Source of the DNA: Patescibacteria group bacterium
GTDB lineage: Bacteria; Patescibacteriota; Patescibacteriia; UBA9934
Length of the DNA stretch: 64,000 nt
Reading direction: 5' to 3'
Assembly: GCA_038064675.1 (NCBI GenBank)
Contig: JBBTSM010000002.1
Location: forward strand, 145,852-209,851
Translations under genes and position numbers: made by a program
Part shown: positions 5,069 to 46,521 of the stretch, one piece after another
Layout: each line of letters begins with the position of its first letter
How positions within the stretch are numbered: the stretch's first letter is position 1
The notes under the pieces: generated by a model
Seen by the model: only the letters and a program-made list of their open reading frames with translations
Databases searched by the model: none
What the model was told of the DNA's origin: nothing

Positions 5069-5162
5069 GTTTCGGTGCGCTAGGAGCAAATCTCGCGAGA
5101 CGTACTTCATGGTACGTTGAGCAAGTTTGCGACGCAGCAAACCGAAAATACCCCAAATAGGG
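5069..5162. repeat. Palindromic MITE-like repeat, copy A, immediately upstream of tRNA-Asp.
   Basis: It contains the core 'gagacgtacttcatggtacgttgag' with an ACGTAC-N6-GTACGT dyad. The same core is shared with copies at 29483, 28886, 37332, 43903 and 46436. Confidence 0.6.
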
Positions 5163-5174
5163 ACGTTCACTCCT

Positions 5175-5251
5175 GGGTCGGTAGCTCAACTGGTTAGAGC
5201 GCTGCCCTGTCACGGCAGAGGTTGCGGGTTCGAGTCCCGTCCGTCCCGCCA
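5175..5251 (+). tRNA. tRNA-Asp (anticodon GTC).
   Basis: Manual fold: 7-bp acceptor stem GGGTCGG/CCGTCCC, D-arm GCTC..GAGC, anticodon stem CTGCC/GGCAG with loop CTGTCAC, T-arm GCGGG TTCGAGT CCCGT, and a terminal CCA. Confidence 0.85.
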
Positions 5252-5302
5252 GAAAACGACTTCACCTTGGTGAGGTCGTTTTCTTTTTGGGTTAGCGGAA
5301 TT

Positions 5303-6424
5303 TTATGCCGTCACGAGAGTATTCACCGTCCGATTTTGCTCCCAAGAAATAACAGTGTTGCCCGCCTGTTGCCCGGGAACCTCAATTATCGTTTCGAGAA
5401 CCTGTACCGCATCGTGAAGAGAGGCTGATGTTAGGTGGGCGTATCGCTCCGTCATCGCGATCGTGGAATGACCGAGAAGCTCCTGAATGACTCGGAGAGA
5501 GATGCCCTTTATTGCGAGATGCGAAGCGAACGTGTGGCGCAACAGATGCCAGCCCACTTTCCGATCAATTCCAGCATTCCGACAAAGGCGCTTCAATTCT
5601 CGGGTTGCTCCATCGGTACTCCACGGCTTTTCGCCCAGACCGGGGAACGGGAACATGAGTCCCCTTGGTTTGCGCTCCATATAGAGCGAGTGACGCAAAT
5701 CACCAGCGAGTGGAACATGACGAATTCTGTGACTTTTTGTTGTTGTCATTTCTCGTCGAACCCACGATCGTTGGACAGCGACGGTATTTCCCTCGAAGTC
5801 GATATCACTCCACGAAAGTCCCAGAAGCTCCCCCAGCCGCAACCCCGTCCGAAGAGCGACAAAGATCATTCTATGCAGCAATGCGGGTGCTGGCGCGGCT
5901 AGGAGCCTTACAGCTTCGTGCTCTGAAAGAAAATCCACACGTCGCGAATGCGACTTCATCAGCGCAATACGAGGTATCGAGGAGATTTTCTCCCATTCGA
6001 CCGCTGATCGTAGGCAGCGACCGAGTACTGTTAGCTGATTGTTAATCGACTTGGACGATAGCCCCTCATCGCGCTTACGCGCCTTGTATCGCTCGATGTC
6101 TTCTCCGGCAATGCGATCAATCCGTATCTTTCCAAAGAAAGGCACAAGATGTCGTTGAAGGATTGATGCCTTCATTCTGCGTTCTGAGAGTTTATTGTTT
6201 GCGGCGACATAGGAATCCATCCAGCTAACTGAGAACTCCGAAAAAATCGGAGCGTCCACGGGTTTCTCTAGATGACCATCGCGCGCGAACCTCGCTCGTA
6301 ACATCGCCTCATATGCCGCAGCACCAGCGCGACTATTTTCCGGACTTCTTTTGCGGCAACGGACACACGCTATGCTGAAGTCCACCCACCATGTGTTTCG
6401 CATTTTTCGTACGCTCATACTCAT
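5303..6424 (-). CDS. int: Tyrosine-type site-specific integrase.
   Basis: The C-terminal catalytic region has 'HLLRHTFASHLA' (HxxR) and 'LGHSTIAMTERYAHL' (catalytic Tyr). The ORF is open to 6559, but the likely start is the internal 'MSMSVRKMRN' methionine. Confidence 0.8.
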   Translation of the reverse strand: MSMSVRKMRNTWWVDFSIACVRCRKRSPENSRAGAAAYEAMLRARFARDGHLEKPVDAPIFSEFSVSWMDSYVAANNKLSERRMKASILQRHLVPFFGKIRIDRIAGEDIERYKARKRDEGLSSKSINNQLTVLGRCLRSAVEWEKISSIPRIALMKSHSRRVDFLSEHEAVRLLAAPAPALLHRMIFVALRTGLRLGELLGLSWSDIDFEGNTVAVQRSWVRREMTTTKSHRIRHVPLAGDLRHSLYMERKPRGLMFPFPGLGEKPWSTDGATRELKRLCRNAGIDRKVGWHLLRHTFASHLAIKGISLRVIQELLGHSTIAMTERYAHLTSASLHDAVQVLETIIEVPGQQAGNTVISWEQNRTVNTLVTA

Positions 6425-6629
6425 TCGACTGCGCCACGAGGTGTCTTTCAATATACGTATCAACGTCTGAACGTCGAAAACGAATATAACGAGGGAACCG
6501 ATAGAACGGAATCGACTTTCGTCCGACAATGCGGTACACAGTCTGTTCCGAAATATCAAGGAATTTGGCCAAGCCTTTTACATCGAAGAATTCCTTTTGT
6601 TCAGTTTCTACCTCGTGGCTGCCTGTCAT
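6333..6629 (-). CDS. xis: Excisionase/AlpA-like helix-turn-helix DNA-binding protein.
   Basis: 'DVKGLAKFLDISEQTVYRIVGRKSIPFYRF' is an excisionase-family HTH. The gene lies directly upstream of the integrase on the same strand. Confidence 0.55.
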   Translation of the reverse strand: MTGSHEVETEQKEFFDVKGLAKFLDISEQTVYRIVGRKSIPFYRFPRYIRFRRSDVDTYIERHLVAQSNEYERTKNAKHMVGGLQHSVCPLPQKKSGK

Positions 6630-6713
6630 ATTAATTTTGAATGAGCAACGTTCCGGGCACGATTTTTTGATCGTGTATAGGTTTGCTCATCATAGTTGAT
6701 TTAATAGATATTG

Positions 6714-6917
6714 CTAAGCGGTTCGACTATAAATTTGCACACGTTCCTCGAAGGGTAATTCTGATTTCGGTATAGATGCGTAATAGCCACAGGGTTTTTT
6801 CGCGCCACACTGAAAGTAGACGTATTTCTTTCGTCGAGTGCACCGTAACGGAGATTTTCCACACCAAAGACACGTTTTATTCCAAAGTTCACGAACCGCA
6901 CTAAATTTTCTATTCAT
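6714..6917 (-). CDS. Small Cys-rich (zinc-ribbon-like) hypothetical protein, island cargo.
   Basis: A 67-aa ORF with CLWC...C...FQC...KPC spacing. An ORF in the other frame at 6701-6901 was considered less likely. Confidence 0.25.
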   Translation of the reverse strand: MNRKFSAVRELWNKTCLWCGKSPLRCTRRKKYVYFQCGAKKPCGYYASIPKSELPFEERVQIYSRTA

Positions 6918-7112
6918 ATTCAGATTACCTTCGCTCTCCCTCAGTGCACTGAGGAAGCCGACATTGGGTTGTATTAAGAGTCATGGCCATGGGGTTGAGC
7001 CCGAGCACACTGGCGAATCCAGCTTCAGGCGTGGTAGACATGGTCACGAATATGTAGAACGTATCGTCGAAAAGTTTTAAGTCGTTCCACGGATAGTCTG
7101 GACTTGGTGAAT

Positions 7113-7397
7113 CTAATTGCCGTCGTACATTCGAGCTTTGACGAACTTCATGTGTCGAGAAAATTCCTGCGGTTCAACTCGCATTCGTCGCATCCAAAAA
7201 GATTGGATTGCCGCTTCAAGCTCTTCTGATCGTTGAATGTAAAAAGCTACTCGTCCATCCTGATCTTTTTCCGTTGCCTCGATACAAAAACCGAGAAGCG
7301 AAAGTGATGAAACAAGAATCCAATCACGAGTCACGAAGGATCTATGCCCTGAATCTTCATCGTTATTCATATATGTTTTCTTAATCGAAAAGACCAT
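7113..7397 (-). CDS. Hypothetical protein, island cargo.
   Basis: A 94-aa ORF on the same strand as the integrase, AT-rich. Confidence 0.3.
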   Translation of the reverse strand: MVFSIKKTYMNNDEDSGHRSFVTRDWILVSSLSLLGFCIEATEKDQDGRVAFYIQRSEELEAAIQSFWMRRMRVEPQEFSRHMKFVKARMYDGN

Positions 7398-7488
7398 GCG
7401 CGCAGCATGATCTTTTTTCTAAAAATAGTCGTTCGGATTTAAGCCCCTGACTAAATCCAGCAGACTTTTTATGGATTATCCGATGTTT

Positions 7489-8445
7489 TTAGGCATTAAT
7501 CTCCACTAATCCACAGCTTATTTCTGAAACGATTTGTCGAATTGTTCCTGCATCTATTTTCAGCCCACCATTTTCTGGTCTTGATAGCCAAGTCTGTAAC
7601 TTAACATCAGGATTCTTTCCGGCCGTTTTAAAAACTTGATATTGGTTATAGATTCTTACATTACGCAAGAAGTTTCTATCCGCACTCATTCTTTTGCCCT
7701 CAGGTATTGATCTTCCCGCTTTCAAGCAAAGAGAAATGCTATCCCAATTCTTTTCTATATATCCCAAGAGTTCTTCTTTTTCCGTTGTGTCGTCAAAAAC
7801 AAGCTCACAGACTTTTGGGGCAAGCTCTTTGGGCTCAGTAATCGGAAGTTTAAGCGAAGGAAAAAGCTCGCTTCCCGGTAACTTTATGGGTGTCGCTGCG
7901 AGTATCTCCAAACTTTTCGCAATATCTGCTTTGAGCTCTTCTGGGGTAAAACGAAGGATTTGATTCACTTTCCTACTCGTAACGTCGGTTTTGAAACTAA
8001 TCGTATTTGAAATGTTTGGATAAGCGAATTCCTTGCTCCAGATTTCAAATTCCAGAGAAAAGGATGGGAAGCTCTTTATATCCATCGAATGCTCGAAATA
8101 TAGATGCTCGATAATTTGAGATGCTGTTTTTACAAAGTACTCCTTTTCGTTTTCGGTAACATTTTTGAAATAATTTCCAAGAACCACACGATCCAAATAT
8201 TTTCGAATAACATCGGAAACGTCCTCATCCTTCTCGCATAACGGATAGCTCAAGCCTTTCCTCATCTTTAGATAATGTGCGTCTAAATGAAATAATAGCC
8301 CTTGAAAATCGTTTCTCAGGATAAGAACTTTGAGAGAATGAGCAACACGAAACTCTTTATTTTTAAGGAGAAATTCGTAACATCGACAGCCAAAATCATC
8401 CAACTCTATTTTTGTATTCTCATTCTTCATATTCGCATTATGCAA
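7489..8445 (-). CDS. Hypothetical protein (318 aa), island cargo.
   Basis: A long AT-rich ORF with no recognisable catalytic motif. Confidence 0.45.
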   Translation of the reverse strand: MHNANMKNENTKIELDDFGCRCYEFLLKNKEFRVAHSLKVLILRNDFQGLLFHLDAHYLKMRKGLSYPLCEKDEDVSDVIRKYLDRVVLGNYFKNVTENEKEYFVKTASQIIEHLYFEHSMDIKSFPSFSLEFEIWSKEFAYPNISNTISFKTDVTSRKVNQILRFTPEELKADIAKSLEILAATPIKLPGSELFPSLKLPITEPKELAPKVCELVFDDTTEKEELLGYIEKNWDSISLCLKAGRSIPEGKRMSADRNFLRNVRIYNQYQVFKTAGKNPDVKLQTWLSRPENGGLKIDAGTIRQIVSEISCGLVEINA

Positions 8446-8473
8446 GTATGGTAAGCAATATCACCTACAATGA

Positions 8474-8786
8474 AAATGGTAGAAAAAGGTGGAAATACGA
8501 CGTTTCAAAAATGGTAGCAAATGGTCGCATTTTGGAGAGATGGAGACTAAAAAAGGTGGGAAATGGTGGGATTTTATAAATGGTGGAAAAGGGTGGAAAT
8601 TTGAGGTTTTAAAAATGTTGGAAAAACATGGAAATTCGTGGAATTAAAAGGGTCGAAAAAGGTCGAATCTCGTTAGTGAAGAATTGGCGGAAAAAGGCGG
8701 ATACTCAATAGCTAGAAAATGGCTGGAATGGTCTGGTTTTTGAGTTATGAAAAATGGTAGGCAAAGGTAGGATTTTTATTGGAAAA
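8474..8786. repeat. Array of nine degenerate ~35-bp tandem units. Each unit carries a unit-specific GG-word duplicated across an A-tract.
   Basis: Every unit has the form atGG-W-aaaaa-GG-W-aat...aaaa with a 10-bp internal period. Examples: ggtcgAAAAAggtcgAAT; ggcggAAAAAggcggATA; ggtaggCAAAggtaggATT; ggtggAAAAgggtggAAAT; ggctggAAtggtctggTTT. Confidence 0.7.
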
Positions 8787-8853
8787 TAAGGGAACTCGCC
8801 CGATCGAAGTGTCTGCTAGCCGAAGCCTTTCTTTTTCGCTATACTCCGTCTTG

Positions 8854-8988
8854 TCGAGCTTCAACCCAAAACACGGGCAATTTTTGCCTTATCGGATCGC
8901 GCGCTATAAGCGGCACCGATAAAACAACACAGCACGATCCGTCGTGTTGGGTTGAGGCTCGACACCTTCGGTGTCGCTTTTTGTTTTT
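8854..8988 (+). ncRNA. Candidate structured RNA or leader: a ~21-bp imperfect long-range stem enclosing ~67 nt, immediately followed by an intrinsic terminator.
   Basis: The left arm 'gtcgagcttcaacccaaaacacg' (8854-8875) pairs with 'cgtgttgggttgaggctcgac' (8943-8963). A terminator hairpin gacaccttcggtgtc plus a T-run follows at 8961-8988. Confidence 0.35.
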
Positions 8989-8994
8989 AAAAAT

Positions 8995-9330
8995 ATGGAA
9001 GAGTTCATCGCATATTTCTACGTCGGGATTCCAATAATCGTTATTGTCGTTATCGCTTTTCTACGGACAAAGAAAAAGATGAAAAGGATCAAAACGATCC
9101 AATCGATTCCGGAGAAGGATCGAACAACATCTGAAAGTAAATGGTTAAAATGGATTCGCTTTCTTTTGGAAATTATCATTCCGGCATACATAATCATCGT
9201 TCAAGGCTTTTTTGCCTATTTCGGTTATGGAAGCGGGCATCTACCTTGGTCAATTCTAGCTGTCTTTGTTGGTATAGCCCTTCACTTCGCCATACGAAGC
9301 TTCTTTCGAAATAAATTCGAAAACTCCTAA
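8995..9330 (+). CDS. Small membrane protein (first gene of the four-gene island operon).
   Basis: The ATG at 8995 is chosen because the 8971 start would lie inside the terminator stem. The product has about three transmembrane segments and a basic loop. Confidence 0.45.
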   Translation: MEEFIAYFYVGIPIIVIVVIAFLRTKKKMKRIKTIQSIPEKDRTTSESKWLKWIRFLLEIIIPAYIIIVQGFFAYFGYGSGHLPWSILAVFVGIALHFAIRSFFRNKFENS

Positions 9331-9342
9331 TAGATCGCCCCT

Positions 9343-9780
9343 ATGGAGAATCAAAAGGCGATCAAAGGAATCTCCCAAGAAAATAGGAAACTCATTTCCG
9401 GAACGTTATTCTTGGTTCTTTTTCTTTGGGTTTTTAACGGAATCTACGGAACGCTTATCTCCTTTGGATTATCGGCTGTTTTTTATTGGCTGCTCGATAG
9501 GATTGGAAAAGAATATGAATTCGATTCAGCGACAAACGAAAGGCTGAGAAGGGTCGTCTGGGGCATGATCGCGGGTGCACTTATCGTTGGATCGATACTG
9601 GCATTCAACTCCAAAAACCATACAGAGTGCGATCAACAGGTGCGAACAAGGGACGGTTACGAATGTGTTGGAGATTATGTTGCCGTTAAAGGGGGAGATG
9701 TTGTTGCGGGGGTATTATTAGCTATATTCGGTATTGCAGCCGCAAAAGTCTCGATAACGAAGGCTGACAGCGAGGCGTAA
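9343..9780 (+). CDS. Small membrane protein (second gene of the operon).
   Basis: Predicted to have three to four transmembrane segments, with a 12-nt gap to the upstream gene. Confidence 0.45.
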   Translation: MENQKAIKGISQENRKLISGTLFLVLFLWVFNGIYGTLISFGLSAVFYWLLDRIGKEYEFDSATNERLRRVVWGMIAGALIVGSILAFNSKNHTECDQQVRTRDGYECVGDYVAVKGGDVVAGVLLAIFGIAAAKVSITKADSEA

Positions 9781-9795
9781 CCCAATCTTCGGCCT

Positions 9796-10575
9796 ATGCT
9801 CAGATTTCTTGTTCCTGAACGATTTGAAGGCTTGAACGAGCAGGGTCTGACGAATGACCAAGCTATAGAGGCGCTCGTGCGAAAATATATTCAAGGCTAT
9901 AAACACGAATGTCCCAATACATCCTCGATTGCGGACGAAGATGATCGAAGTGCTACCGAAACTCTTCAAATCGGCGGGAAAATGGACACCCTATACGCAC
10001 TTAGTCGTTTGTATTTTAAACATTTAGATGAATTGGTGGATTCAGAAGCTGCCAGTCGATTAAAATCAGAAATCGCACAAGGCATCGGGGAAGAAAACCT
10101 ATTCCGAGATAAAGAGAGCTCCCCCGAAGAAGACCAGCAGAAAATGATCCGTAATTTACTAGATTACGTAGAATATACGGGGGAGGATGACCGAGTGATA
10201 AGCGTCTTAGCTACTCTAAAAAGAGACGTTTATAGAAAATCTACCAAATACGTCTTGGGCGATTTTGGTGTGCCGAACCCACTCTTGACCGAGGAGGCGG
10301 AGAAAACCGTGTCTGAAGGCTCTACGCGCTTCCTGAACGCGTTTAGAAGTCTGTATCCCGACCAATTTACCGGTAATCTCGAATTAGAAAACGACGGGTT
10401 GTTTTTCGTTGGCGAAATAGTCTCTCGCACACGGGTAATCTCCCAAGGAATGTACCCAGAATATGCTGACAACATTAGTCAAAGTGTTATTTTTGAAATC
10501 CTTCTTTCCCTCGATTCGATTCTTGGATCAAGAACCGCTTGGGATCAGGAATTCTGCGCTTGGATTTGTCATTAA
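9796..10575 (+). CDS. Hypothetical acidic cytoplasmic protein (third gene of the operon).
   Basis: A 259-aa Glu/Asp-rich product with no TM segments. The gap to the next gene is 47 nt. Confidence 0.45.
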   Translation: MLRFLVPERFEGLNEQGLTNDQAIEALVRKYIQGYKHECPNTSSIADEDDRSATETLQIGGKMDTLYALSRLYFKHLDELVDSEAASRLKSEIAQGIGEENLFRDKESSPEEDQQKMIRNLLDYVEYTGEDDRVISVLATLKRDVYRKSTKYVLGDFGVPNPLLTEEAEKTVSEGSTRFLNAFRSLYPDQFTGNLELENDGLFFVGEIVSRTRVISQGMYPEYADNISQSVIFEILLSLDSILGSRTAWDQEFCAWICH

Positions 10576-10622
10576 CTAAGGAGTAATATCAAGTTAACAC
10601 TTTAATAGCTACAATTAACGCT

Positions 10623-12620
10623 ATGGAATCAATTCAGATTAAAGGTAATGGCGTTAAATCGGTGCTTCGCAAGTTCAATAGAGCCCAATCCTTCGCTGAA
10701 TATGTCTGGAACGGTTTTGATGCTGGAGCAAAGAGCGTTAACATCAACTTTAAGACTGACAACATTTTTGATTCAGTTAACGAGATCAGCATATCTGATG
10801 ATGGAAGCGGCATCCCGTACCAGTTGCTAGAGGGCAAATTCAAGCCATTCTTTGAATCTGAAAAGGCGAGATTGAATGATCCGCAACATCGATCGCTGCC
10901 ACACGGAAAGAACGGCATTGGTCGCCTAACCTTCTACACTTTTGCACGCGAAGCTACATGGGAAACGATTTACTCTAAAAACGATAAGAAATTTTCTTAC
11001 ACAATTAAAATCACACAAAAAAGCCTAGAGAATTACGAAGGTAGTCACGACGAACAGAAGGAGGTCGCCACAGAAAAAACAGGAACAACGGTGGTATTTC
11101 GTTCGATTGAAGGGCTTACTCCTAGCATCATTAGAGATGAGATTGTAGATTTTTTAAAAACTGAATTCTGTTGGTTTTTAGAGTCGAAAAAGACCGCTGG
11201 CTTTTCCTTAAAAATTAACGGAGTTGATTTGGATTATGACGATATCGTCAATAACAAGGAGCGCATAGATTTGGTGCATCCTGATTCGGGAACAAAATTC
11301 TCACTAAACTTTATTCAATGGACTCGACATTTATCGAAAGAGTATTCCCGATGGTATCTGATTGATTCAAATGGAATGGAAAAATGGAAAAACGCGACTA
11401 GATTGAATAACAAAGGTGATAACTTTTTTCATAGCGTTTTTGTTTCGAGTAGCTATTTTGATGACTTTATATACGATCCGGATAAGACAGAAGAAGATAA
11501 GACGCTTTTCGGGCATTCAAAGGGTGATCCGGAGTTTAAATACTTGTTGGAGGAATTGAACAGATTCTTGTACAAAAAACGAAAACCGTTTTTAAAAAAT
11601 TCAGCAATCAAACTTATAAAGAATTATGAAACCGAGGGAATTATCCCAAAATTCAAAGAGCCATGGGAATTACCAAGAAAAGATGAGTTAGAGACGCTTA
11701 TCCGTGGACTGTATGAAATACAGCCTCGTCTCTTTTCGAGCTCATCCATAGAGCAAAAGAGGACATTTGTCCTTCTTCTAAATGCACTACTTGACTCAGA
11801 AGATCGAGAGCAGCTTTTAGATATCATTAATAACGTTCTCGAACTGAGTAGAGAAGATAGAACGGAATTAGTTGAGTTATTGAAAGTTACAAAGCTTTCT
11901 GGGATTATTAGCACAATTAAATTAATAAAAGAACGTTATAAAACGATCGATCAAGTTAAGGAGCTAGTCTTTAACCCCACTTTAAAAGCAAATGAAAGAG
12001 ATCATTTGCAGAAAATAATTGATGCACACTATTGGATCTTTGGTGAGAAATACAATCTAGTTTCATCTACAGAAATAAAGTTCCAAAAAGTACTTGAAAG
12101 CTATCTACATTTATTAGGAATCGAAAATAAGGCAGAAGTCATAACACATGTTGATAGGAATAAAGAGATGGATATATTTCTGTGCAGACAAAATATCTCA
12201 GTCGATACAATCGAGAATGTAGTAGTTGAGCTGAAGAGTCCAACCGTACCGCTCGGAGAAAATGAGCTATCACAGGTTAAAAGATACATGAGCGTTATCC
12301 TCAGCGCTGCCCAATTCAACGCAAATAACATGCAGTGGGATTTCATTTTGATTGGAAATAAATTCGATACCAGTGGTTTTATACAAAACGAGATTAAAAA
12401 TGCGGAAAGTCACGGCGAAAAGAGTAAGGGATTAGCATTCAAAACGGATCGTTATCGTATATATGTTCGCACGTGGAGTGAGGTATTAAACGACGTAGGA
12501 ATTCGACACGACTTCTTGCAAAAGAGGCTTGAACTTGATCGAAATAAACTGACTAAAGATTACGTTTCAGCAGATGATGTCGTCATAGACGCCGGAAAGA
12601 ATCTTGAGACGGTTGCGTAA
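10623..12620 (+). CDS. GHKL-family (MORC/MutL-like Bergerat fold) ATPase fused to a C-terminal PD-(D/E)xK nuclease-like domain. Predicted defence effector.
   Basis: N-box 'EYVWNGFDAGAK', G1 box 'ISISDDGSGIP' and G2 box 'HGKNGIGRL' mark the ATPase. The C-terminus 'DIFLCRQNISVDTIENVVVELKSP' fits a D...ExK nuclease motif. Confidence 0.6.
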   Translation: MESIQIKGNGVKSVLRKFNRAQSFAEYVWNGFDAGAKSVNINFKTDNIFDSVNEISISDDGSGIPYQLLEGKFKPFFESEKARLNDPQHRSLPHGKNGIGRLTFYTFAREATWETIYSKNDKKFSYTIKITQKSLENYEGSHDEQKEVATEKTGTTVVFRSIEGLTPSIIRDEIVDFLKTEFCWFLESKKTAGFSLKINGVDLDYDDIVNNKERIDLVHPDSGTKFSLNFIQWTRHLSKEYSRWYLIDSNGMEKWKNATRLNNKGDNFFHSVFVSSSYFDDFIYDPDKTEEDKTLFGHSKGDPEFKYLLEELNRFLYKKRKPFLKNSAIKLIKNYETEGIIPKFKEPWELPRKDELETLIRGLYEIQPRLFSSSSIEQKRTFVLLLNALLDSEDREQLLDIINNVLELSREDRTELVELLKVTKLSGIISTIKLIKERYKTIDQVKELVFNPTLKANERDHLQKIIDAHYWIFGEKYNLVSSTEIKFQKVLESYLHLLGIENKAEVITHVDRNKEMDIFLCRQNISVDTIENVVVELKSPTVPLGENELSQVKRYMSVILSAAQFNANNMQWDFILIGNKFDTSGFIQNEIKNAESHGEKSKGLAFKTDRYRIYVRTWSEVLNDVGIRHDFLQKRLELDRNKLTKDYVSADDVVIDAGKNLETVA

Positions 12621-12819
12621 TCCCTTTTTAGGTTTAAAAAATGTGTCTTTCTTAACAAAACCTACTATTTACTTCTCGATGTCCACAGTTTAAGAGAATG
12701 TCGGTGTATACTATGGGTACCATCAAATGTTGACAAAATGGCTAGATTTGAGACAATATTCCGTTACAAATCGAAAACCCCGATCGACTTGAGAATCAAC
12801 GGGGCTTCGATAATGAGAG

Positions 12820-12981
12820 TTACGCCTGCAAAATGCCCTCAATCTCACGGTTGATGGGCTTTTTGAATATGTGAAGATAGTAATAGATTTCTCCATCAAC
12901 CATCGTCTTCAACACTTTGCCCGGAGGATAATCCTCAAGCTCGGTGTCCCCCCATATTCGAAGAGGGTTCGGTACAATCAT
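12820..12981 (-). CDS. Possible 53-aa small ORF (MIVPNPLRIWGDTELEDYPPGKVLKTMVDGEIYYYLHIFKKPINREIEGILQA), found by manual translation.
   Basis: It falls below the ORF-track length cutoff. A hairpin (ccccgatcgacttgagaatcaacgggg, 12776-12806) lies downstream of its stop. Confidence 0.2.
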   Translation of the reverse strand: MIVPNPLRIWGDTELEDYPPGKVLKTMVDGEIYYYLHIFKKPINREIEGILQA

Positions 12982-13421
12982 AGTGATTCCCGTTATACCC
13001 TCAGGAGCCTGAGTGCGCGCTGGAGCTTATGCGCCCCCTCTGCCAGAGATGGGGGCAAAAGGGAAGCGTAAACAAAACACACGCTCAGGGCGAAACGAGA
13101 AGCTTTCCCTTTCGGGAAGAAAATCCAGTTCCATCCTAGGCGTGCGTGTTTTGAGTACGTAGTCCATTATGGTTGTGGCCTTTCCACTTCATGTTTCGTT
13201 CATATCGATTGCTCGATACGAAGATAGAGTAGCACATTCGCCCGCCAAAATACAGCGATCACCTCCCGGACGGTGTTGCCCGCCCGTTGCCTATAAGGTG
13301 ATGGGATCTGTATTTTTGTGAGTACTCGTGATGGCTAGTGAGAAACGAGAAATTAGCCTAGCTATCGCCAACTTCGTACCTTTTCGGCCATTTTTTCTTT
13401 TTTCCTAATTTTGCGTCATCA

Positions 13422-13446
13422 GGTTCGAGTCCCGTCCGTCCCGCCA
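13422..13446. repeat. attR-like 25-bp direct repeat identical to the tRNA-Asp 3' end.
   Basis: 'ggttcgagtcccgtccgtcccgcca' is identical to 5227-5251. It is followed by the terminator hairpin atccttcagc-tttt-gctgagggat. Confidence 0.7.
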
Positions 13447-37627: not shown

Positions 37628-39760
37628 ATGAATCGTTTCAGCTTCCGTTCCCTCGTCGCCCCGATCCTCACGATCGTCGGCGACAGCCTTCCTTCCATCC
37701 CCACCGTCGCTGTTTCTGGCGTTCTCGCCCTCGTGCTCACTGGCTGCAATCTGCCCTCGGGCGACTGCACGAAGTCGAGTGATGGCTTCTTCGGAACAGC
37801 CACGATCGTGCTCGACTGCGGCAAGGCCGATACTGGCAACACGGTGGTGGATTCCGGAGACACCGGCGACTCGGTTCCAGACTCGAACGCCGAGACCGGT
37901 GAAACGGATTCGGGTGAGATCGATGAGACCAATTCGGACACAGACACCGCTGCTCAGCCCACCGATGCGGACGGCGACGGTTTCAACACCGACGACGATT
38001 GCAACGACCACGACACGGCGATCAATCCGGATGCCACGGAGATCTGCGACGGCGTGGACAACAACTGTGACGACGTCATCGACACCGATGCGGCGGACCA
38101 GACCACGTACTACGCGGACACGGACAGCGACGGCTACGGCGACGCGACGGTGATCGTGGACGACTGTTCGGCTCCCGCCGGGTACGTCGAAGACGACACC
38201 GACTGCGACGACGCGGATGCCACCATCCATCCGTACGCGGACGAGGACTGCACGGCGATGGAAGATCTCAACTGCGACGGCTCGTTCGGCTACGCGGATG
38301 CCGACGGTGACTTGGTTCCCGCGTGCGAGGACTGCGACGACACCAACGCAAACGCCTACCCCGGTAACACGGAAGTGTGCGACGGGGTGGACAACGATTG
38401 CGAAGACACCGTCGACGAAGACGCCGCGGACGAGCTCACTTGGTACGAGGATCTCGATGGAGACACGTACGGCGATTCGGATTCCACCACCTTCGCCTGC
38501 GACGAGCCCATTGGCTACGTGGCCGACTCCGCCGACTGCGACGACGCCGCCGCCACCGTCAACCCGGGAGCCGCAGAGGTCTGCAACGACGTGGACGACG
38601 ACTGCGACGGCGGTACGGACGAGGACCTCGCGGTCACCGTCTACTACACCGACGCGGACGGCGATGGGTACGGGGCGGGCAGCGGGTCCTCCGAGTGCGC
38701 CGATCCCGGCGCCGGCTACAGCACGGTCAACACCGACTGCGACGACACCAACGGGGCCATCAACCCCGCGGCGGTGGAGACGTGCGACGGCGAAGACAAC
38801 GACTGTGAAGGCACCGTCGATGAAGGCGCCGTGGATGCGCTCACCTGGTTCGCGGACGGCGACAACGATGGCCACGGCAACGCTGCCATCAGCGTCTTGT
38901 CCTGCAGTGAGCCTTCCGGCTACACCGCGGACGACACCGACTGCGATGACACGGACAACGATGTCTACCCGGGCGATGCCGAGTGGTGCGATGGCAAGGA
39001 CAACGACTGCGACGGCGTCATCGATATCAACGACGGCGACGGCGACGGCGTCGATGCCTGTAGCGGGGACTGCGACGACGGCGACGCCGCCGAATTCCCC
39101 GGGAACCCCGAAGTTTGCGACGGCCTCGACAACGACTGCGACGGCGGCGTGGATGACGGTCTGACCGGAACCTACTACCGCGACAGCGACGGCGACACGT
39201 ACGGCGACCCGTCGGTGTCCACCACCGCGTGCAGCGCTCCGAGCGGGTACGTGTCCAACAACACCGACTGCGACGACGGCGACTCCGGAATCAACCCCGG
39301 GGGAACCGAAGTCGTGGGCAACGGCGTGGACGACGACTGCAGCGGAACGGAGCTGGTCTTCACGACCGACTTCGGGATGTCCACCGGCGTGTGCCGTCTC
39401 GACGGCGCATACACCTCGACGGGTGCCGCCGTCCGTCAGGCCGGCGGGTGCTACATCTGGGTAGAAGGGTACGGGAGCCTCACGGCTCCTGCGGTGTCCG
39501 TGGATATCGACGTCGCGGGCCTCACGGCTGGCGATGAGTACATCTTCTCCTGGGACGTCGGGAACGCGAGCGCGTCCACCACCACGTTCGTCGGCGCGTT
39601 CACCGGCTCGTCCATCGAGTCGCTGTCCCTCGGGACGGGAACCTCCGGCGTGCTGGAGGACATCGTGACTGTCGGGTCCACCACCGTGACCGCCAGCATC
39701 TGGCACACGGGGACGAACGACTACGACGGATACCTGACCGGGTTCACCGTCGAACGGTAG
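37628..39760 (+). CDS. High-GC secreted lipoprotein with ~8 tandem MopE-like repeats (putative metal-binding Cys/Asp repeats).
   Basis: Lipobox 'LALVLTGC'. The repeat unit is 'W/YYxDxDGDGYGxxxxxxxACxxPxGYVxxxxDCDDxxxxxxPGAxExCDGxDNDCDGxxDE'. The 805-aa antisense ORF is rejected as a GC artefact. Confidence 0.65.
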   Translation: MNRFSFRSLVAPILTIVGDSLPSIPTVAVSGVLALVLTGCNLPSGDCTKSSDGFFGTATIVLDCGKADTGNTVVDSGDTGDSVPDSNAETGETDSGEIDETNSDTDTAAQPTDADGDGFNTDDDCNDHDTAINPDATEICDGVDNNCDDVIDTDAADQTTYYADTDSDGYGDATVIVDDCSAPAGYVEDDTDCDDADATIHPYADEDCTAMEDLNCDGSFGYADADGDLVPACEDCDDTNANAYPGNTEVCDGVDNDCEDTVDEDAADELTWYEDLDGDTYGDSDSTTFACDEPIGYVADSADCDDAAATVNPGAAEVCNDVDDDCDGGTDEDLAVTVYYTDADGDGYGAGSGSSECADPGAGYSTVNTDCDDTNGAINPAAVETCDGEDNDCEGTVDEGAVDALTWFADGDNDGHGNAAISVLSCSEPSGYTADDTDCDDTDNDVYPGDAEWCDGKDNDCDGVIDINDGDGDGVDACSGDCDDGDAAEFPGNPEVCDGLDNDCDGGVDDGLTGTYYRDSDGDTYGDPSVSTTACSAPSGYVSNNTDCDDGDSGINPGGTEVVGNGVDDDCSGTELVFTTDFGMSTGVCRLDGAYTSTGAAVRQAGGCYIWVEGYGSLTAPAVSVDIDVAGLTAGDEYIFSWDVGNASASTTTFVGAFTGSSIESLSLGTGTSGVLEDIVTVGSTTVTASIWHTGTNDYDGYLTGFTVER

Positions 39761-39866
39761 TGAGGGTTCGTCACCTCGGGCCGGCGTACGCAGCGCCAGC
39801 CAACGAAGCTCTCGATCACCGCAAGGTGATCGGGGGCTTCTTCGTTTCCGATGGTATACTTTCTGT

Positions 39867-41399
39867 ATGATTCCCGATTTTCGTTCGTTGTATCGTGCGT
39901 CGGAAGAGCATGCGCGTCTTGCGTTCTTCGGATTTACTGCGCTTCTTGCACTTGGTTTTCTCGGGACGGTATTCTTTTCGTCTACGCTTGTTGTTGCGGC
40001 TGTCGTCGTGATCATTGGCATCGCCTTTACGTTTGCACGGCCGACGTGGACGCTGGCTGCCTTTGCCGTGTATCTCCCATTTGAGCCGTTTTTGTTGAAA
40101 TGGGTTCCGGACGATGTGTACGTGTTTGCACGCTATGGTTCCGAGCTTATCGTGTATTTGCTCCTTGCGGTTGTTGTGTGGCGAATGATCACCGGATCGA
40201 TTACGTTCAAGCGTACGCCGCTCGATGTTGCCTTTTGTGTCGTGATTTTTCTTGCACTCGTTTCTGTTGCGATTAACGCTCTTTCGCCGTGGGTTGCACT
40301 TCTTGGCCTTCGGCAAATTTTCCGATTCGTCTTACTGTTTTTTATCGTCGTGTACCTCTCGCCGTCAAAAGAACTTCTTCGAAAATTGCTGGTCGCAATG
40401 TTTGTTATCGTCACCATTCAGGCAGCGCTCGGATACGCTCAGCGTTTGCTTGGCGAGCCAATCGATACATTCCTTCTTCCGTCTGCACAGCGTACGCTTG
40501 GAAGCTTGCAGCTCACGTCCGGTACTACGCAATTTTGGGATCCTGGTCAGCGCGTGTTCGGTACGCTTGGCCGATATGATCAGTTAGGAACATTCATGGC
40601 GTTCTTCCTGATTCTTTTGGTAGCGTTTTTGTACGAACGCGCTCTTGCGAAACATGAGGAGCTTCCGGCGTGGTTCATCTTACTTTTTTCTGTTCCTGTT
40701 GTGGGATTAGCGTACTCGCGCTCTGCGTGGTTTGGTTTTGCGCTCGCATTCTTTTTTATCGCCCTTGTTGTAAAGCGCGACAAGCGTGTTCTTGCGGCAA
40801 CGCTCATTGGTGCATCGCTGGTTGGCGGATATCTTTCCATTTCTGGACTTGTCGTGAATCAACTTATTGATTCTTCAAGCCAAACATTGAGCGAGCGGTT
40901 TTTTGAGGCGTTTTCTTACGCGCGATGGCAGGGTGAATATTTCGGGCTCGGTCGTGTGTATTGGATGGCGCAAACCGTGTGGACTGTGGTGCCGTCGTCG
41001 CCGTTGTTCGGCCATGGCCCAGGAACATTCGGCGGTGGAGCGGTTGCGGCGCTTGGGAATACCGATGTGTATGACCGGCTCGGCTTGCCGTTTGGTGTGT
41101 ATGGAACGGAGGGCTACATCGACAACAATTGGTTTAGCATGTGGGGTGAACTTGGTACATTGGGGCTTGGCGCGTATCTCGTGATGTACGTGACGTTGTT
41201 CTTGGTGTGCTTACGGGTGTACCGCGAATCGAAGGATCCCGAGGTACGCGCGTTTGCCCTTGGTGTAGCCGGAGCAATGCTCGCGGTTGCGGTGAACGCA
41301 TTTCTTGCGACATTTTTGGAAGCGCGAACGCTCGCTCCGTATCTGTGGATTATGGGCGGCTCTGTGGTTGCGTTCGGAAAGAAGGAGGAGATTCTATGA
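39867..41399 (+). CDS. O-antigen ligase/polymerase (Wzy_C) family membrane protein.
   Basis: About twelve transmembrane segments are predicted, with a 'GLAYSRSAWFGFALAFF' Wzy_C-like region. Confidence 0.7.
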   Translation: MIPDFRSLYRASEEHARLAFFGFTALLALGFLGTVFFSSTLVVAAVVVIIGIAFTFARPTWTLAAFAVYLPFEPFLLKWVPDDVYVFARYGSELIVYLLLAVVVWRMITGSITFKRTPLDVAFCVVIFLALVSVAINALSPWVALLGLRQIFRFVLLFFIVVYLSPSKELLRKLLVAMFVIVTIQAALGYAQRLLGEPIDTFLLPSAQRTLGSLQLTSGTTQFWDPGQRVFGTLGRYDQLGTFMAFFLILLVAFLYERALAKHEELPAWFILLFSVPVVGLAYSRSAWFGFALAFFFIALVVKRDKRVLAATLIGASLVGGYLSISGLVVNQLIDSSSQTLSERFFEAFSYARWQGEYFGLGRVYWMAQTVWTVVPSSPLFGHGPGTFGGGAVAALGNTDVYDRLGLPFGVYGTEGYIDNNWFSMWGELGTLGLGAYLVMYVTLFLVCLRVYRESKDPEVRAFALGVAGAMLAVAVNAFLATFLEARTLAPYLWIMGGSVVAFGKKEEIL

Positions 41400-43894: not shown

Positions 43895-43902
43895 AAACAG
43901 GA

Positions 43903-44016
43903 CTTCCTCATTTGGCCGATTTTGGGCTTGCGCCATCGGAAACTTCTTCAACGTACCAAGAAGTACGTCTCGGAAGCTTTCCTCGCCGCGCACCCAAACT
44001 CGTCACAAATGAGAAA
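43903..44016. repeat. Palindromic MITE-like repeat (copy E) with terminal inverted repeats.
   Basis: The termini are 'cctcatttggccgattttggg' and 'cccaaactcgtcacaaatgag'. The core is 'caacgtaccaagaagtacgtc'. Confidence 0.6.
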
Positions 44017-44246
44017 CTCCTGGTCGTTACATAAAACCGAGTCTGAAAAGACTCGGTTTTGTGTTGGAGAGGGGGCCTGAACTGAATCTTGAAAATGGTT
44101 GTGACGGGAAGTTGGCGACGACGAACTGGAGTCATCGCCGAGATCGGCATGTGTGTTTTTCGATAAGACCGATGTTAGGTAAATATAAGATTTCACTCAT
44201 CGATTCATTGAGCTTTTCGCAGATAAGATGTTAGGTCCACACCCAT

Positions 44247-45479
44247 TCAAAGATTCACGTCAGATCGTAGTACTTCTTTCACGATTCGCTTACTTACAAA
44301 ATCCGGTATGCGGCCGACGATGTGTTTTGATCGGAGGAATGGAATGTGCGCGATGCTGGCGTGGCCGGCAAAGAGGGTTGGGAGAATCTCGGATTCACCG
44401 AACGCGTCGATCGTCTGGCGGACTTGGATCAGACCTGATCGATAGAGATGATCGCGACGAAAGCCGAGGCCGGCGGTGTTCGGATGATGAATACCGCGAG
44501 ACACACGAAGCATGAGCCGCCATGCGGTATCGAATGCCTCCTCATCGGCGTGATTAATGTTGAGCGCGATGTTGAGTTTGCGGCGTGCGTCGCGGATGAT
44601 TTCAAAAGCCGATCGGAAATCCGCTTCCTTCGAAAGTGCAGCAGCCCAAGCATCCCAGAACCCAGGGTCCATGGATTCTTCGGTTTTGAGTTTTTGTTGC
44701 ATCGCGACGGCGAGGCCTTCGTCGGTGGCGATATATCCGGCTAATCCCCGGCCAAGCAGGAGTATCGGCGATGTCATGCCGTTCGCTGTTCGCAACGCGT
44801 GAACCTCGATTTCGTGAGTGAGCAATCGTGCGGCACGAGCTCTGGACGCAAGAAAGTTTTTTGGGATCTTCACCGTTGGTGCGCGGTCGAGCGAATCGCC
44901 GCGTGAAACGGAAACGCTTGGTCGATTGATGAACCGTGTTGTCCAATCGGTCATGCCGTAATGATCAAGCGTCGCGCGGACCATGCGCTCGAATATGACG
45001 GTATCCACTCGGTCTTGATGGGTATGGAGTTCGTGCGATCGTGCCAAGAGGGTTGTGAATTCATCGGCGAGCTCGGCGCCCGTTTGGACGCATGGTCCGA
45101 AGAGATGATCTGCGAGTGCGGAAACTGCGGTGTCGTCTTTCCGTTTCATTGCACTAACAATCTGCGCACGGGTTGTGAGCTCGGCAAGTTTCTCGAGATA
45201 GAGTGCGCGAATATCTTCGGAGGCTGGAATCGAGGCGATGCGATCATGAACGGATCGGAGCGCGGTGAGATATGCGACGTCATCAAAACGATCGAGACGG
45301 TGATATATGAACGTTGGTGTTGTGCGATCGGCGACGAATTGGTTTCGTGCAACTCGGGCGGCTGCGCGATTTTGACGAACAAGGTTTGCAAACGGAAATG
45401 CTGGGAGGGTTTGGAACGTCTTAAACAATGGGGCGTCGAGCGGCTCCATATCTAGGTACGTTCTGTGGGGATCTTCCAC
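44247..45479 (-). CDS. HExxH-motif protein resembling the DUF1704 (QEGLA-motif) putative metallopeptidase family.
   Basis: 'LLTHEIEVHALRT' provides the HExxH motif, and 'IATDEGLAVAMQQ' is QEGLA-like. Confidence 0.45.
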   Translation of the reverse strand: MEDPHRTYLDMEPLDAPLFKTFQTLPAFPFANLVRQNRAAARVARNQFVADRTTPTFIYHRLDRFDDVAYLTALRSVHDRIASIPASEDIRALYLEKLAELTTRAQIVSAMKRKDDTAVSALADHLFGPCVQTGAELADEFTTLLARSHELHTHQDRVDTVIFERMVRATLDHYGMTDWTTRFINRPSVSVSRGDSLDRAPTVKIPKNFLASRARAARLLTHEIEVHALRTANGMTSPILLLGRGLAGYIATDEGLAVAMQQKLKTEESMDPGFWDAWAAALSKEADFRSAFEIIRDARRKLNIALNINHADEEAFDTAWRLMLRVSRGIHHPNTAGLGFRRDHLYRSGLIQVRQTIDAFGESEILPTLFAGHASIAHIPFLRSKHIVGRIPDFVSKRIVKEVLRSDVNL

Positions 45480-45700
45480 TTGTCTACAAACTGGCCGATA
45501 CCGTCTTTGGCGAGCTTGTGGCGAACGGTTGTAGTCTTGTCAGCCCAGTCTAAAAGGGAGGCGAGATCGATCTTGTATCGATTTTGAACCACAATACACT
45601 CCACCGCTTTGTCGGTAATTGCTCGGCGGATCGTTCGTTGGCTCACCCCGAAGAACTTCGCGGCTTCGGAAACGGAGAGTCGGATGGAAGTGTCTTCCAT
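45452..45700 (-). CDS. Small helix-turn-helix DNA-binding protein (excisionase/MerR-like HTH).
   Basis: 'LSVSEAAKFFGVSQRTIRRAITDK'. Confidence 0.5.
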   Translation of the reverse strand: MEDTSIRLSVSEAAKFFGVSQRTIRRAITDKAVECIVVQNRYKIDLASLLDWADKTTTVRHKLAKDGIGQFVDKWKIPTERT

Positions 45701-45876
45701 AGGGTGTAATGATCCTGAATCTTTTACGTCTTTTGCGAACCTTAGCCAAATTTCTTCTCCAGGAGGCCTGAAGGCTACCCTATACCCTTGAGATTATATA
45801 CTTTTCTTCAAAATCCTGCTAAGGTTCGTGCTAATTTTGGCACTGTAATACTTTGTCGCGTCTTGCGTCTTAATAC

Positions 45877-46410
45877 ATGTCAACACTTCGGGAAAAATTT
45901 CTTGCCTTCCGCGTGTACCGCCATCAGGACAGCGTGGCGTACGGCGAAATCTACGACATGTTCGCGGACCGCATCCGACGCTTTCTGGCGTTTAAGCTTC
46001 CGCGAAACGAAGACGCGGATGAGCTTACTGGAGAAGTCTTTCTCCGAGGGTGGGAATACATGACGAGTAGCGCCGTGAATAACCTCAACGCATTCTTCTT
46101 CCGCATTGCTCGAAACTTGGTGGCCGACTTCTATCGGAAGTATAAGGTTACCGAGGAGCTCGATGCGGCATCAGAAAAGGCGAGCGGCGTATCTGTTTCG
46201 GAAGAAGTCGCCACGAAGATCGAAAGCGATGAGCTCATCGAATCGCTTCGAGGGATAAAGGATGAATATCGCGAAGTTCTGGTCATGCGTTACTTGAGTG
46301 AAATGGAAGTGGGGGAGATTGCGTCTGCTTTAGAGAAGACGTCCAACAGCGTTCGTGTGCTCCTGCACCGGGCAAAAAAAGCGTTACAAGAAAAGATGAA
46401 AATAGATTGA
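45877..46410 (+). CDS. ECF-subfamily RNA polymerase sigma-70 factor.
   Basis: Region 2 'ELTGEVFLRGWEY' and region 4 'YREVLVMRYLSEMEVGEIASALEKTSNSVRVLLHRAKKAL'. Confidence 0.8.
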   Translation: MSTLREKFLAFRVYRHQDSVAYGEIYDMFADRIRRFLAFKLPRNEDADELTGEVFLRGWEYMTSSAVNNLNAFFFRIARNLVADFYRKYKVTEELDAASEKASGVSVSEEVATKIESDELIESLRGIKDEYREVLVMRYLSEMEVGEIASALEKTSNSVRVLLHRAKKALQEKMKID

Positions 46411-46435
46411 CTTTTAGGACTTTCACATTTGAGGC

Positions 46436-46521
46436 TAGTTTCGATGAAGATCGAGGAAAGCTCGCGAGGCGTACTTATGTGTACGTTGAGCGAGTTTCCG
46501 ATGATCTGAGTCGAAAATAGA
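46436..46521. repeat. Palindromic MITE-like repeat (copy F).
   Basis: 'gctcgcgaggcgtacttatgtgtacgttgagcgagttt' with termini 'tttcgatgaagatc' and 'gatctgagtcgaaaa'. Confidence 0.55.

Follow-up and report, generated by a model that had tools for sequence, protein, structure and literature searches.

Widespread ~125-nt hairpin elements in Patescibacteria and other bacterial phyla and their polar association with tRNA and tmRNA gene ends

The 64,000-nt stretch of DNA analyzed here (positions 145,852 to 209,851 of contig JBBTSM010000002.1, assembly GCA_038064675.1, of a Patescibacteria group bacterium; hereafter called the window) contains a set of dispersed palindromic repeats. These repeats belong to a widespread and so far unannotated family of non-coding hairpin elements of ~125 nt. 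An earlier description of the window, made from the sequence alone (the original prediction), had reported that the copies often lie next to RNA genes. We found a strong and polar association with the ends of tRNA and transfer-messenger RNA (tmRNA) genes, which is the most important feature of the family. Given the structure, distribution and position of the copies, we consider it probable, with due reserve, that they represent a non-autonomous and strand-specific mobile hairpin, which a trans-acting factor takes hold of by its conserved tip and which favours the ends of tRNA-like genes.

Structure and spread of the hairpin family

The original prediction listed seven copies of around 100 bp, each with the core dyad ACGTAC-N6-GTACGT and flanked by terminal inverted repeats (TIRs). 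When one mismatch is tolerated the dyad occurs six times in the window, against 0.04 times by chance. A covariance model built from 119 family members recovered six full copies, scoring 89-111 bits on one strand, and a partial copy of 26 bits at 423-501 on the - strand, and it found no further copies in the window. On the opposite strand the scores were 12-17 bits for the three copies that passed E<=1, the sense strand scoring ~90 bits higher. The seven copies thus make up one family, with the following members:

5047-5170, + strand: full copy with Uhrbacteria-type arms (covariance model 5041-5175, 107.5 bits; hairpin of -66.6 kcal/mol, z -9.9)
28884-29004, - strand: variant copy with CTAGG...ACAACG-type arms (covariance model 28878-29010, 89.2 bits; hairpin of -78.5 kcal/mol, z -13.5)
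29464-29590, + strand: full copy (111 bits), 90% complementary to 43900-44026
37335-37450, - strand: full copy in a high-GC segment (108.9 bits)
43900-44026, - strand: full copy (107.6 bits)
46416-46536, + strand: full copy (109.8 bits)
433-497, - strand: internally deleted copy (26 bits at 423-501; also supported by alignment and repeat pairs)

Repeat finding tied together the copies at 5044-5167, 29464-29590, 37335-37450, 43900-44026 and 46416-46536 (112-127 nt, 74-90% identity, direct and inverted), joined 28884-29004 to these via the core alone and returned 433-477 as a half copy. The arms of 28884-29004 are wholly unlike those of the other copies but complementary to each other. According to the alignment, the deleted copy has lost the core, the 5'-arm base (TTTCTCAATTGAGGCTAGTTT) being fused straight to the 3' arm. 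The predicted positions were right; the full copies extend somewhat further than proposed, to ~120-127 nt, and each of them folds into a single long hairpin (-59 to -79 kcal/mol; z -7 to -13 relative to dinucleotide shuffles). As predicted, all copies are intergenic and both orientations occur, with three full copies on either strand. The near-identical spurious peptides that had been noted (..LADFGLAPSETSSTY[QH]EVRLGSFPRRA..) are real as well, and are translated from the antisense strand of the copies.

The element consists of one imperfect stem of ~50 bp, whose arms vary among copies yet pair. Its tip is near-invariant, 5'-(C/U)GAG-RCGUAC-YY-loop-GUACGY-YGA(G/A)-3', and is made up of a 5-bp CGUAC/GUACG helix plus G.U or A-U pairs, closed by a tandem G.A/A.G internal loop. 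This symmetric 2x2 loop (GA opposite GA) borders the core, and the pair outside it shows C-G to U-A covariation among copies that had not been picked by the scan pattern described below. A second and less conserved internal loop, with AAGG or TAGG in the 5' arm against AACG in the 3' arm, is found in the non-Uhrbacteria types and in the window copy close to the tmRNA gene (28884-29004).

The consensus structure was taken from per-sequence folds and 75 copies were realigned with the covariance model; RNAalifold on a MAFFT alignment gave the apical 13 pairs only, the arms being misaligned. In the realigned set, standard pairs occupy 78.6% of the cells, versus 54.6% in column shuffles and 35-40% when the partners are slid by 1-3 columns. 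Double-sided changes were counted in 948 cells versus 367 in the shuffles, and the covariation score is 0.563 versus 0.177, in an alignment that was itself fitted by the covariance model and for palindromic DNA, which may also keep its arms complementary. The covariation on a single strand by which structured non-coding RNAs are recognized is therefore present. In the basal helix all 17 pairs covary: the proposed TIRs have no common terminal sequence and are the copy-specific base of the stem. In the apical helix, five of the eight pairs (CGUAC/GUACG) are essentially unchanging, whereas changes in the remaining three are one-sided only and switch between wobble and Watson-Crick pairing; the two pairs that follow CGUAC/GUACG swap G.U with G-C or A-U. 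Conservation peaks at the centre, with an apical 26 nt that is near-invariant, and is lowest at the termini.

The two strands of the element are not equivalent. Of 113 copies, 111 fold more stably as the sense strand, with a mean difference of 13.4 kcal/mol, and so do all six full copies of the window, by 7-26 kcal/mol. Outside the core, the arms contain 238 G.U pairs versus 162 antisense-only A.C pairs (with an excess in 45 copies and a deficit in 16), and among the arm mismatches purine-purine combinations outnumber pyrimidine-pyrimidine ones by 448 to 154. Since these wobble and purine-purine features reside on one strand only, the unit that is recognized or selected would be a single strand (RNA or single-stranded DNA) and not duplex DNA. 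This argues for selection or recognition of the folded single strand, and counts against a duplex operator or TIR. Both RNA and single-stranded DNA accommodate G.T pairs and tandem G.A, so the strand data do not tell these two apart.

Copies occur far beyond the window. When the core pattern CGAGRCGTACTTNNNNGTACGTNGAG was searched in GTDB, with one genome taken for each species, at least 112 loci (designated by L numbers below) were returned, where ~0.1 would be expected by chance according to our own estimate for 21 fixed bases in 1.2e12 positions. Among the matches listed, the Patescibacteria are represented by Uhrbacteria, Parcubacteria, Saccharibacteria, Paceibacterota and Kerfeldbacteria. 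The other hosts among them include Nitrospira and further Nitrospirota, Syntrophales and other deltaproteobacterial orders, Geobacterales/Desulfuromonadales, Terriglobia (Acidobacteriota), Rokubacteria, a metagenome-assembled genome (MAG) of the Pseudobdellovibrionaceae and the isolate Lucifera butyrica (Negativicutes). The core is carried by megabase contigs (Nitrospirota, Terriglobia) and by complete chromosomes, and this breadth is therefore not due to mis-binning. At nearly every locus, the two 60-nt flanks of the core pair up to form the same long hairpin, with arm sequences that are unrelated between lineages and a GC content (0.37-0.72) that tracks the host.

The core pattern had zero matches in the viral contigs of IMG/VR, and blastn with full-length copies gave none in the PLSDB plasmids and none in complete E. 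coli genomes. Rfam 15 contained no family over the window copies at the gathering threshold, nothing at E<=1 for six loci from several phyla and nothing at E<=10 for the copies in 28870-29610. A likeness of the arm motifs to 5S or 4.5S RNA, seen by eye, had no Rfam support either. A search of the published literature by core sequence and by keywords returned no description of the hairpin family.

In the Terriglobia (L019, L041, L042, L044, L058, L069, L077, L080, L088, L093 and L112) the core lies inside a larger composite repeat, the flanks of which are 85-100% identical between loci, within and across genomes, and several of these copies have no full long hairpin. Furthermore, three MAGs labelled as Gammaproteobacteria carry Uhrbacteria-type copies (L003, L010) or a copy of the TAGG type that is typical mostly of Patescibacteria (L070). 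L010 and the Uhrbacteria locus L012 encode RecG proteins that share 89% identity, and at least L010 is probably a mis-binned contig of the candidate phyla radiation (CPR).

Comparison of the window with related loci identified three orthologous sites that are filled in the relative and empty in the window:

27592-27593: rpmI/rplT junction, filled in L068
27802-27841: infC/rpmI spacer, filled in L068
28421-28483: 63-nt spacer upstream of the tmRNA gene, filled in L113

In L068 (Uhrbacteria TrH-25oct19-103) the copies occupy the infC-rpmI and rpmI-rplT spacers, both antisense to the operon, where the window has a spacer of 40 nt and a short one of ~21 nt, respectively. In L113, whose IF3 is 92% identical, a copy lies between the tmRNA promoter and the first nucleotide of tmRNA, where the spacer of the window is unbroken. 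A duplication of TA was not seen at any of the three sites. Copy density differs: only seven copies were counted in the 330 kb of 72 metagenomic loci around infC from relatives, versus seven in the 64-kb window and 45 in 212 kb of Uhrbacteria-type loci, with five within 8 kb in L099. Other copies are old, as they are common to the window and its relatives: the one 3' of tmRNA is shared with L115 and the one in the high-GC segment with L075. In some orthologous copies the arms are mismatched (L009) or look swapped between copies (L039).

Association with tRNA and tmRNA gene ends

The tRNA and tmRNA genes in all loci were located with ARAGORN and combined with the covariance-model matches (148 copies). 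No more than 12 nt separates 28 of the 148 copies from a tRNA or tmRNA gene end, and 30 of the 44 tRNA and tmRNA genes in these loci abut a copy. Each of the two RNA genes of the window bears a copy, with the following features:

4998-5025, + strand: sigma-70-like promoter, TTGTCA-16-TACTAT with extended TG (promoter scan)
5175-5251, + strand: tRNA-Asp, neighbour of the copy at 5047, followed by an intrinsic terminator at 5251-5284 (tRNA and Rfam scans)
28484-28882, + strand: tmRNA, neighbour of the copy at 28884 (tRNA and Rfam scans)

Two arrangements were observed. In arrangement A (17 copies), the element precedes a tRNA or tmRNA gene on the same strand, with 1-9 nt between its 3' end and the mature 5' end of the RNA. 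The genes concerned are tmRNA in five Nitrospira loci and L116, tRNA-Asp in the window and, elsewhere, tRNA-Ser, Lys, Leu, Val, Ile, Pro, Thr and Gln. L113 is not among the 17, being a short locus without a callable tmRNA, though its layout is the same. In arrangement B (at least 7-9 copies), the element is on the strand opposite to the gene, and 0-4 nt separate its 3' end from the complement of the encoded CCA; here the genes are tmRNA (window and L115) and, elsewhere, tRNA-Ala, Arg, Pro, Leu and Ile. Taken together, the two arrangements imply that the element points its 3' end at the end of the acceptor stem, from about the same distance on either side. The polarity is ~26 to 1. The sole pure exception, L037, has its 5' end alone toward the tRNA, and the remaining apparent exceptions are copies squeezed between two tRNAs. 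Polar adjacency to tRNA genes is present in at least two phyla, the Patescibacteria and the Nitrospirota.

Assuming ~45 tRNA genes per genome, we estimate that random placement would give less than one adjacency genome-wide, and ~6 if placement is confined to intergenic DNA. A polarity of ~26:1 is not expected under random placement. A stretch of 660 nt (L099:140-800) illustrates the rule: it contains tRNA-Ser (-), a - strand element 5' of this gene, a + strand element, tRNA-Pro (+) and a - strand element, and all three elements aim their 3' end at a tRNA. Polarity that is mirrored around tRNA genes is not explained by asymmetry of transcription or replication and fits a structure-guided targeting of the acceptor end. 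One may speculate that the 3' end of an element RNA is joined to tRNA ends via tRNA-primed or template-switching reverse transcription, which would leave the integration step unexplained. We know of no bacterial repeat for which a polar association, on the scale of nucleotides, with tRNA and tmRNA genes at both of their ends has been described.

In the window, promoter, element, tRNA-Asp and terminator follow each other in this order, and the copy ends 4 nt (TCCT) upstream of the first nucleotide of tRNA-Asp, on the same strand. Relatives without the element have promoter-like hexamers at a matching distance from tRNA-Asp, as read from the alignment, and the tmRNA promoter of L113 is likewise located upstream of the inserted copy. 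Promoter-like sites just upstream were found for five of the 17 arrangement-A copies versus eight of 118 others. Within the 148 copies themselves, the search for an internal sigma-70-like promoter gave no more than one and two weak matches on the two strands. RNase P cuts at the mature 5' end of tRNAs. Given the order of promoter, element and tRNA, the sense hairpin should be part of the leaders of pre-tRNA and pre-tmRNA.

No such preference holds with respect to protein genes. The strands of these genes were called with a self-trained codon model, as simple codon-position discriminants proved unreliable; a naive caller of open reading frames (ORFs) was tried as well. In the Uhrbacteria-type loci, co-directional contexts comprised 10 antisense and 5 sense copies, next to 5 convergent and 4 divergent contexts (codon model). 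The absence of a sense bias makes a cis-regulatory mRNA motif unlikely. With neither caller was there an orientation bias, and a cis-regulatory motif of untranslated regions (UTRs), or a simple role at the mRNA level, was rejected. This also disposes of one conserved UTR regulatory motif, which had been put forward as an alternative to a mobile repeat, as there is no consistent gene association either. A replication-strand bias was rejected for the window too, which has three + (5047, 29464, 46416) and three - copies (28884, 37335, 43900) under a monotonic cumulative GC skew.

Proposed mode of spread and rival explanations

According to the mobile-hairpin reading that we favour, an enzyme acting in trans would read the conserved tip on the folded single strand and thereby move the element. 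By strong preference, it would land on either side of a tRNA or tmRNA gene, ~0-9 nt beyond the end of the acceptor stem, with the 3' end of the sense strand tRNA-ward. Copies on the 5' side, between the promoter and the mature 5' end, would then be transcribed at tRNA-like levels, and cleavage of the precursor by RNase P would release a free RNA of leader plus hairpin with a defined 3' end. Copies elsewhere, in operon spacers and in divergent or convergent intergenic regions, would be passengers with orientation-dependent effects. The element itself has no promoter, no ORF and no neighbouring recurrent transposase, and is numerous in some lineages and absent from sister lineages. A bolder version, which we offer tentatively and consider doubtful, is that of an undescribed class of mobile elements: a promoter-less hairpin that homes to tRNA and tmRNA acceptor-stem ends across phyla, including minimal CPR genomes, and for which tRNA promoters and RNase P yield an abundant and defined hairpin RNA. 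This RNA would serve either as the intermediate of transposition, for a bacterial retro-element that resembles the short interspersed nuclear elements (SINEs) and whose 3' end becomes attached to tRNA ends, or as a widespread RNA of a new kind, with a conserved tip that binds a protein.

Several observations weigh against mobility as proposed. Clustering of all 1,931 ORFs at the 112 loci brought out no transposase, reverse transcriptase or recombinase as a recurrent neighbour of the copies, and a comparison of 150 of the 436 neighbour ORFs with Pfam gave one DDE transposase and no Y1 transposase, reverse transcriptase or integrase among the recurrent families. Around 80% of the copies are away from tRNA genes, and their 3' flanks show no enrichment of generic hairpins. 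The target rule is therefore incomplete, and the feature that is targeted would be specific to tRNA-like genes; a generic hairpin as the target, for which an initial 70-nt test had given p=0.016, was not supported by the 3'-flank test. No flank motif was found around 118 copies. One of the two insertions in L068 has a plausible 8-bp duplication, TCACCTA(A/T), and the other one and that in L113 have 2-6 ambiguous bases at most. Nitrospira species keep the copy 5' of tmRNA although the flanks have diverged to 70-90% identity, and such retention at the same site could reflect a host function and not selfish persistence. As the loci were gathered with a pattern that fixes the core, the apparent invariance of the core is inflated, a concern that is softened by 16 copies found with the covariance model only. 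Finally, transcription of the hairpin and its release by RNase P are deduced from gene order. Clusters of RecG and PNPase near the copies were considered as partners and dissolved into generic helicase or RNase PH similarity or into loci of the same species; the matches among HEAT-repeat neighbours stem from orthologous Nitrospira loci.

The main rival is a structured RNA, a stable hairpin of ~125 nt that is primarily useful to the host, transcribed from the promoters of tRNA and tmRNA genes and freed by RNase P, with a conserved tip that binds a conserved protein or RNA, the copies away from tRNA genes being decaying or secondary. The structure-preserving covariation, the invariant tip, and the G.U and tandem G.A pairs, as in protein-binding RNA motifs, all suit such an RNA, and so do the position of the element inside the pre-tRNA-Asp leader, downstream of the promoter, and the lack of a promoter of its own, which would make expression lean on tRNA promoters. 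The 5'-of-tmRNA position is, moreover, retained in at least five Nitrospira species, L113 and L116. We nevertheless think it rather unlikely. Its presence differs between close relatives, most sister lineages having no copy near tmRNA or tRNA-Asp, and the decayed or chimeric orthologs L009 and L039, with their mismatched arms, are not what a useful RNA would lead one to expect. One third of the tRNA-adjacent copies lie on the 3' side and on the opposite strand, from which the sense RNA is not made together with the tRNA. That the copies show no preferred orientation toward protein genes (among co-directional copies, 10 are antisense and 5 sense) speaks against it as well, and dozens of copies per small genome would be unusual for a gene of a trans-acting RNA.

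The label given in the original prediction, a Correia-like MITE (a transposable element of the miniature inverted-repeat type), stands as far as it denotes a short, non-coding, palindromic, multi-copy family that occurs in both orientations and is polymorphic for insertion or deletion among relatives. An ordinary MITE, that is two fused ends of an insertion sequence (IS) moved by a DDE transposase encoded elsewhere, as in Correia, RUP or ERIC-like elements, could in addition account for the plausible 8-bp duplication and for the one DDE transposase among 150 neighbour ORFs. We regard it as improbable, since the centre is the most and the termini are the least conserved part, the reverse of a MITE defined by TIRs, and since the same core recurs with differing arms in many phyla and not in one genus. 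Strand-specific wobble and purine mismatches are unexpected if TIRs are recognized as duplex, no clear target-site duplication and no target motif emerged, none of the 112 loci holds a full-length IS with ends that match the element arms, and the polar targeting of tRNA ends is foreign to it. Least probable of all, in our view, are hairpins that resemble terminators or repetitive extragenic palindromes (REPs), with a role in termination or in protection of mRNA 3' ends, and spread by recombination or by an enzyme of the REP-associated tyrosine transposase (RAYT) type. The core is an imperfect palindrome of 26 nt, a REP-like size; the lower stems of the non-Uhrbacteria types have A- and T-tracts, so that either strand presents a hairpin with T5 behind it; in the window copy next to tmRNA, which lies between convergent genes, both strands end in GGGGTTTT; and convergent contexts are common. 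However, Uhrbacteria-type copies have no U-tract, and the terminator scan called none of the window copies. Several copies also lie in leaders (such as those of tRNA-Asp and, in L113 and Nitrospira, of tmRNA) or within operons (such as the sigma/anti-sigma pair and infC-rpmI-rplT), in which termination would do harm. Next to the core, CGAG/TGAG is found in place of the GTAG/CGTC tag, no RAYT-like protein was seen among the top families of the 150 neighbours, and a length of ~125 nt with a conserved tip is unlike the anatomy of REPs or of REPINs (REP doublets forming hairpins).

The mobile hairpin that we prefer is MITE- and REPIN-like in being short, palindromic, non-coding and, as proposed, moved in trans, and it lacks what defines MITEs, Correia elements, REP/RAYT systems, attC sites and intrinsic terminators. 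The bacterial MITEs (Correia/NEMIS, RUP, ERIC/IRU, RPE) are alike in their ~100-150 nt, their long hairpins, their non-coding and multi-copy nature, their intergenic position with co-transcription with neighbours and their insertion polymorphism. They differ in that they conserve shared TIRs that match IS ends and span one genus or family, whereas the present element conserves its centre, shows no clear target-site duplication and no cognate IS in the 112 loci, spans many phyla, is strand-specific and is polar at tRNA and tmRNA ends. We know of no bacterial MITE with such targeting. REPs and REPINs, which are moved in trans by a single-copy RAYT (Y1 HUH), are likewise non-autonomous, asymmetric imperfect palindromes that are read as folded single strands, and REPINs give long hairpins. 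Unlike the element, REPs are 20-40 nt, tagged by GTAG/CGTC and species-specific, REPINs conserve the stem ends while the loop varies, and beside the hairpin element no RAYT was found. Integron attC sites share the imperfect palindrome (57-141 nt), the free sequence and the conserved single-strand fold in which unpaired bases set the strand. They conserve the base of the stem (R''/R' boxes, RYYYAAC...GTTRRRY) and sit in cassette arrays by intI, whereas our consensus has no such boxes, the copies are single and dispersed, and the sole integrase of the window belongs to a genomic island at tRNA-Asp.

With respect to targeting, group IIC introns also insert with fixed polarity beside a folded structure (terminator or attC hairpins) and not at a sequence motif. 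These are, however, six-domain retroelements of >600 nt, usually with a reverse transcriptase ORF, that target generic hairpins, whereas the element is polar at tRNA-like genes only. Ty3 and the TRE5 and TRE3 elements of Dictyostelium resemble it in their position-specific integration by tRNA genes, which are safe havens with strong promoters, but they are eukaryotic, autonomous and tethered through RNA polymerase III factors. We know of no bacterial counterpart of such tRNA-gene-targeting retrotransposons. The genome paper of G. metallireducens describes a multi-copy intergenic family with the central palindrome GRCGTAGCGCTGCTACGCC, which is also found in other Deltaproteobacteria (PMC2700814). 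This palindrome starts with GRCGTA..., like the present core, and is otherwise different; the two families were compared on the central palindrome alone, which leaves room for a relation or for none.

Dispersed palindromic repeats are normally lineage-specific. An invariant 26-nt tip in Patescibacteria, Nitrospirota, Acidobacteriota, deltaproteobacterial orders and a Negativicutes isolate would imply a very conserved partner (an enzyme or binding protein), extensive horizontal spread, or both, and the association with tRNA ends would indicate a structure-guided targeting mechanism. At around one copy per 9 kb, the elements take up more than 1% of the window, and a similar share of a CPR genome of ~1 Mb if this density holds genome-wide. 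Considering the copies inside core operons and in the leaders of pre-tRNA and pre-tmRNA, the elements probably shape RNA processing in hosts that cannot be cultivated. In addition, the conserved spurious peptides from the antisense strand can contaminate protein databases, from which a covariance model of the family would remove them.

Genomic context of the window copies

Flanking genes in the window were assigned by Pfam, tRNA and Rfam scans. The Candidatus Uhrbacteria contig of L075 (CALRCK010000002.1) shows ~82% DNA identity to the window across syntenic genes, which places the window in a CPR/Patescibacteria genome. The copy at 5047-5170 has a gene of the beta-lactamase family (-) on one side and tRNA-Asp (+) on the other. 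The copy at 28884 lies between the convergent tmRNA (+) and smpB (-) genes, on the strand opposite to tmRNA and with 1-2 nt between its 3' end and the CCA end of this gene, an arrangement that is repeated in L115. The copy at 29464 occupies the spacer between the divergent genes for SmpB and an AI-2E transporter, and the one at 43900 separates convergent genes for a GT4 glycosyltransferase and a MATCAP-like protein. The copy at 46416 had been placed in the 5' UTR of an operon for an extracytoplasmic function (ECF) sigma factor. Instead, it separates the ECF sigma factor gene from the one that follows in the operon (DUF5667), in the sense orientation, starting 6 nt past the stop codon and ending 8 nt before the next start codon.

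The position of one copy within a high-GC segment was correctly predicted. This copy (37335) is antisense to the neighbouring genes, the + strand of which was set by a third-position GC content (GC3) of 0.75-0.87 and by a protein with MopE metal-binding repeats, and it is syntenic with L075:6658-6792. The segment itself (window 34000-40000, L075:3500-7500) has a GC content of 0.60-0.66 versus ~0.51, with genes on the + strand. It is kept in the related Uhrbacteria contig, and so was not recently transferred into the genome of the window alone. At 37628-39760 it encodes a 710-aa protein with seven MopE-type Cys-rich metal-binding repeats, in DNA with families of direct repeats of 31-110 nt. A 50-nt direct repeat in this segment (35441-35490 and 36284-36333, 82% identical), also present in L075, contains a near-consensus promoter, TTGACA-17-TATAGT.

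As read from the sequence, the 3' arm of the copy at 29464 finishes in AGGAGGAAG, and a 7-codon ORF starts 8 bases further, at 29596; its TGA stop and the ATG start of the AI-2E transporter gene overlap as ATGA. In this way, the element may provide a Shine-Dalgarno sequence and a coupled leader ORF to the transporter gene. The tmRNA gene at 28484-28882 encodes a tag of 25 residues, ANAFSKVKSMIASAFSVPSFSLVTA, which is unusually long and does not end in the usual ..LAA; near variants occur in the related metagenomic loci L115 and L116.

The 3' end of tRNA-Asp carries an integrated genomic island (window 5175-13451) with a tyrosine integrase gene at 5303-6559 (-), and over ~6-13 kb its GC content falls to 0.36-0.47. 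A 30-nt copy of the tRNA-Asp 3' end at 13422-13451 (97% identical) looks like the distal att site. Within the low-GC island, six iteron-like direct repeats of 27 nt (AAAAATGGTAG.AAATGGT...) at 8472-8776 may serve an integrated plasmid or phage as its site of replication or partition. Elsewhere in the window, a 37-nt direct repeat was found at 16588-16624 and 17378-17414, the two copies being 95% identical and 790 nt apart.

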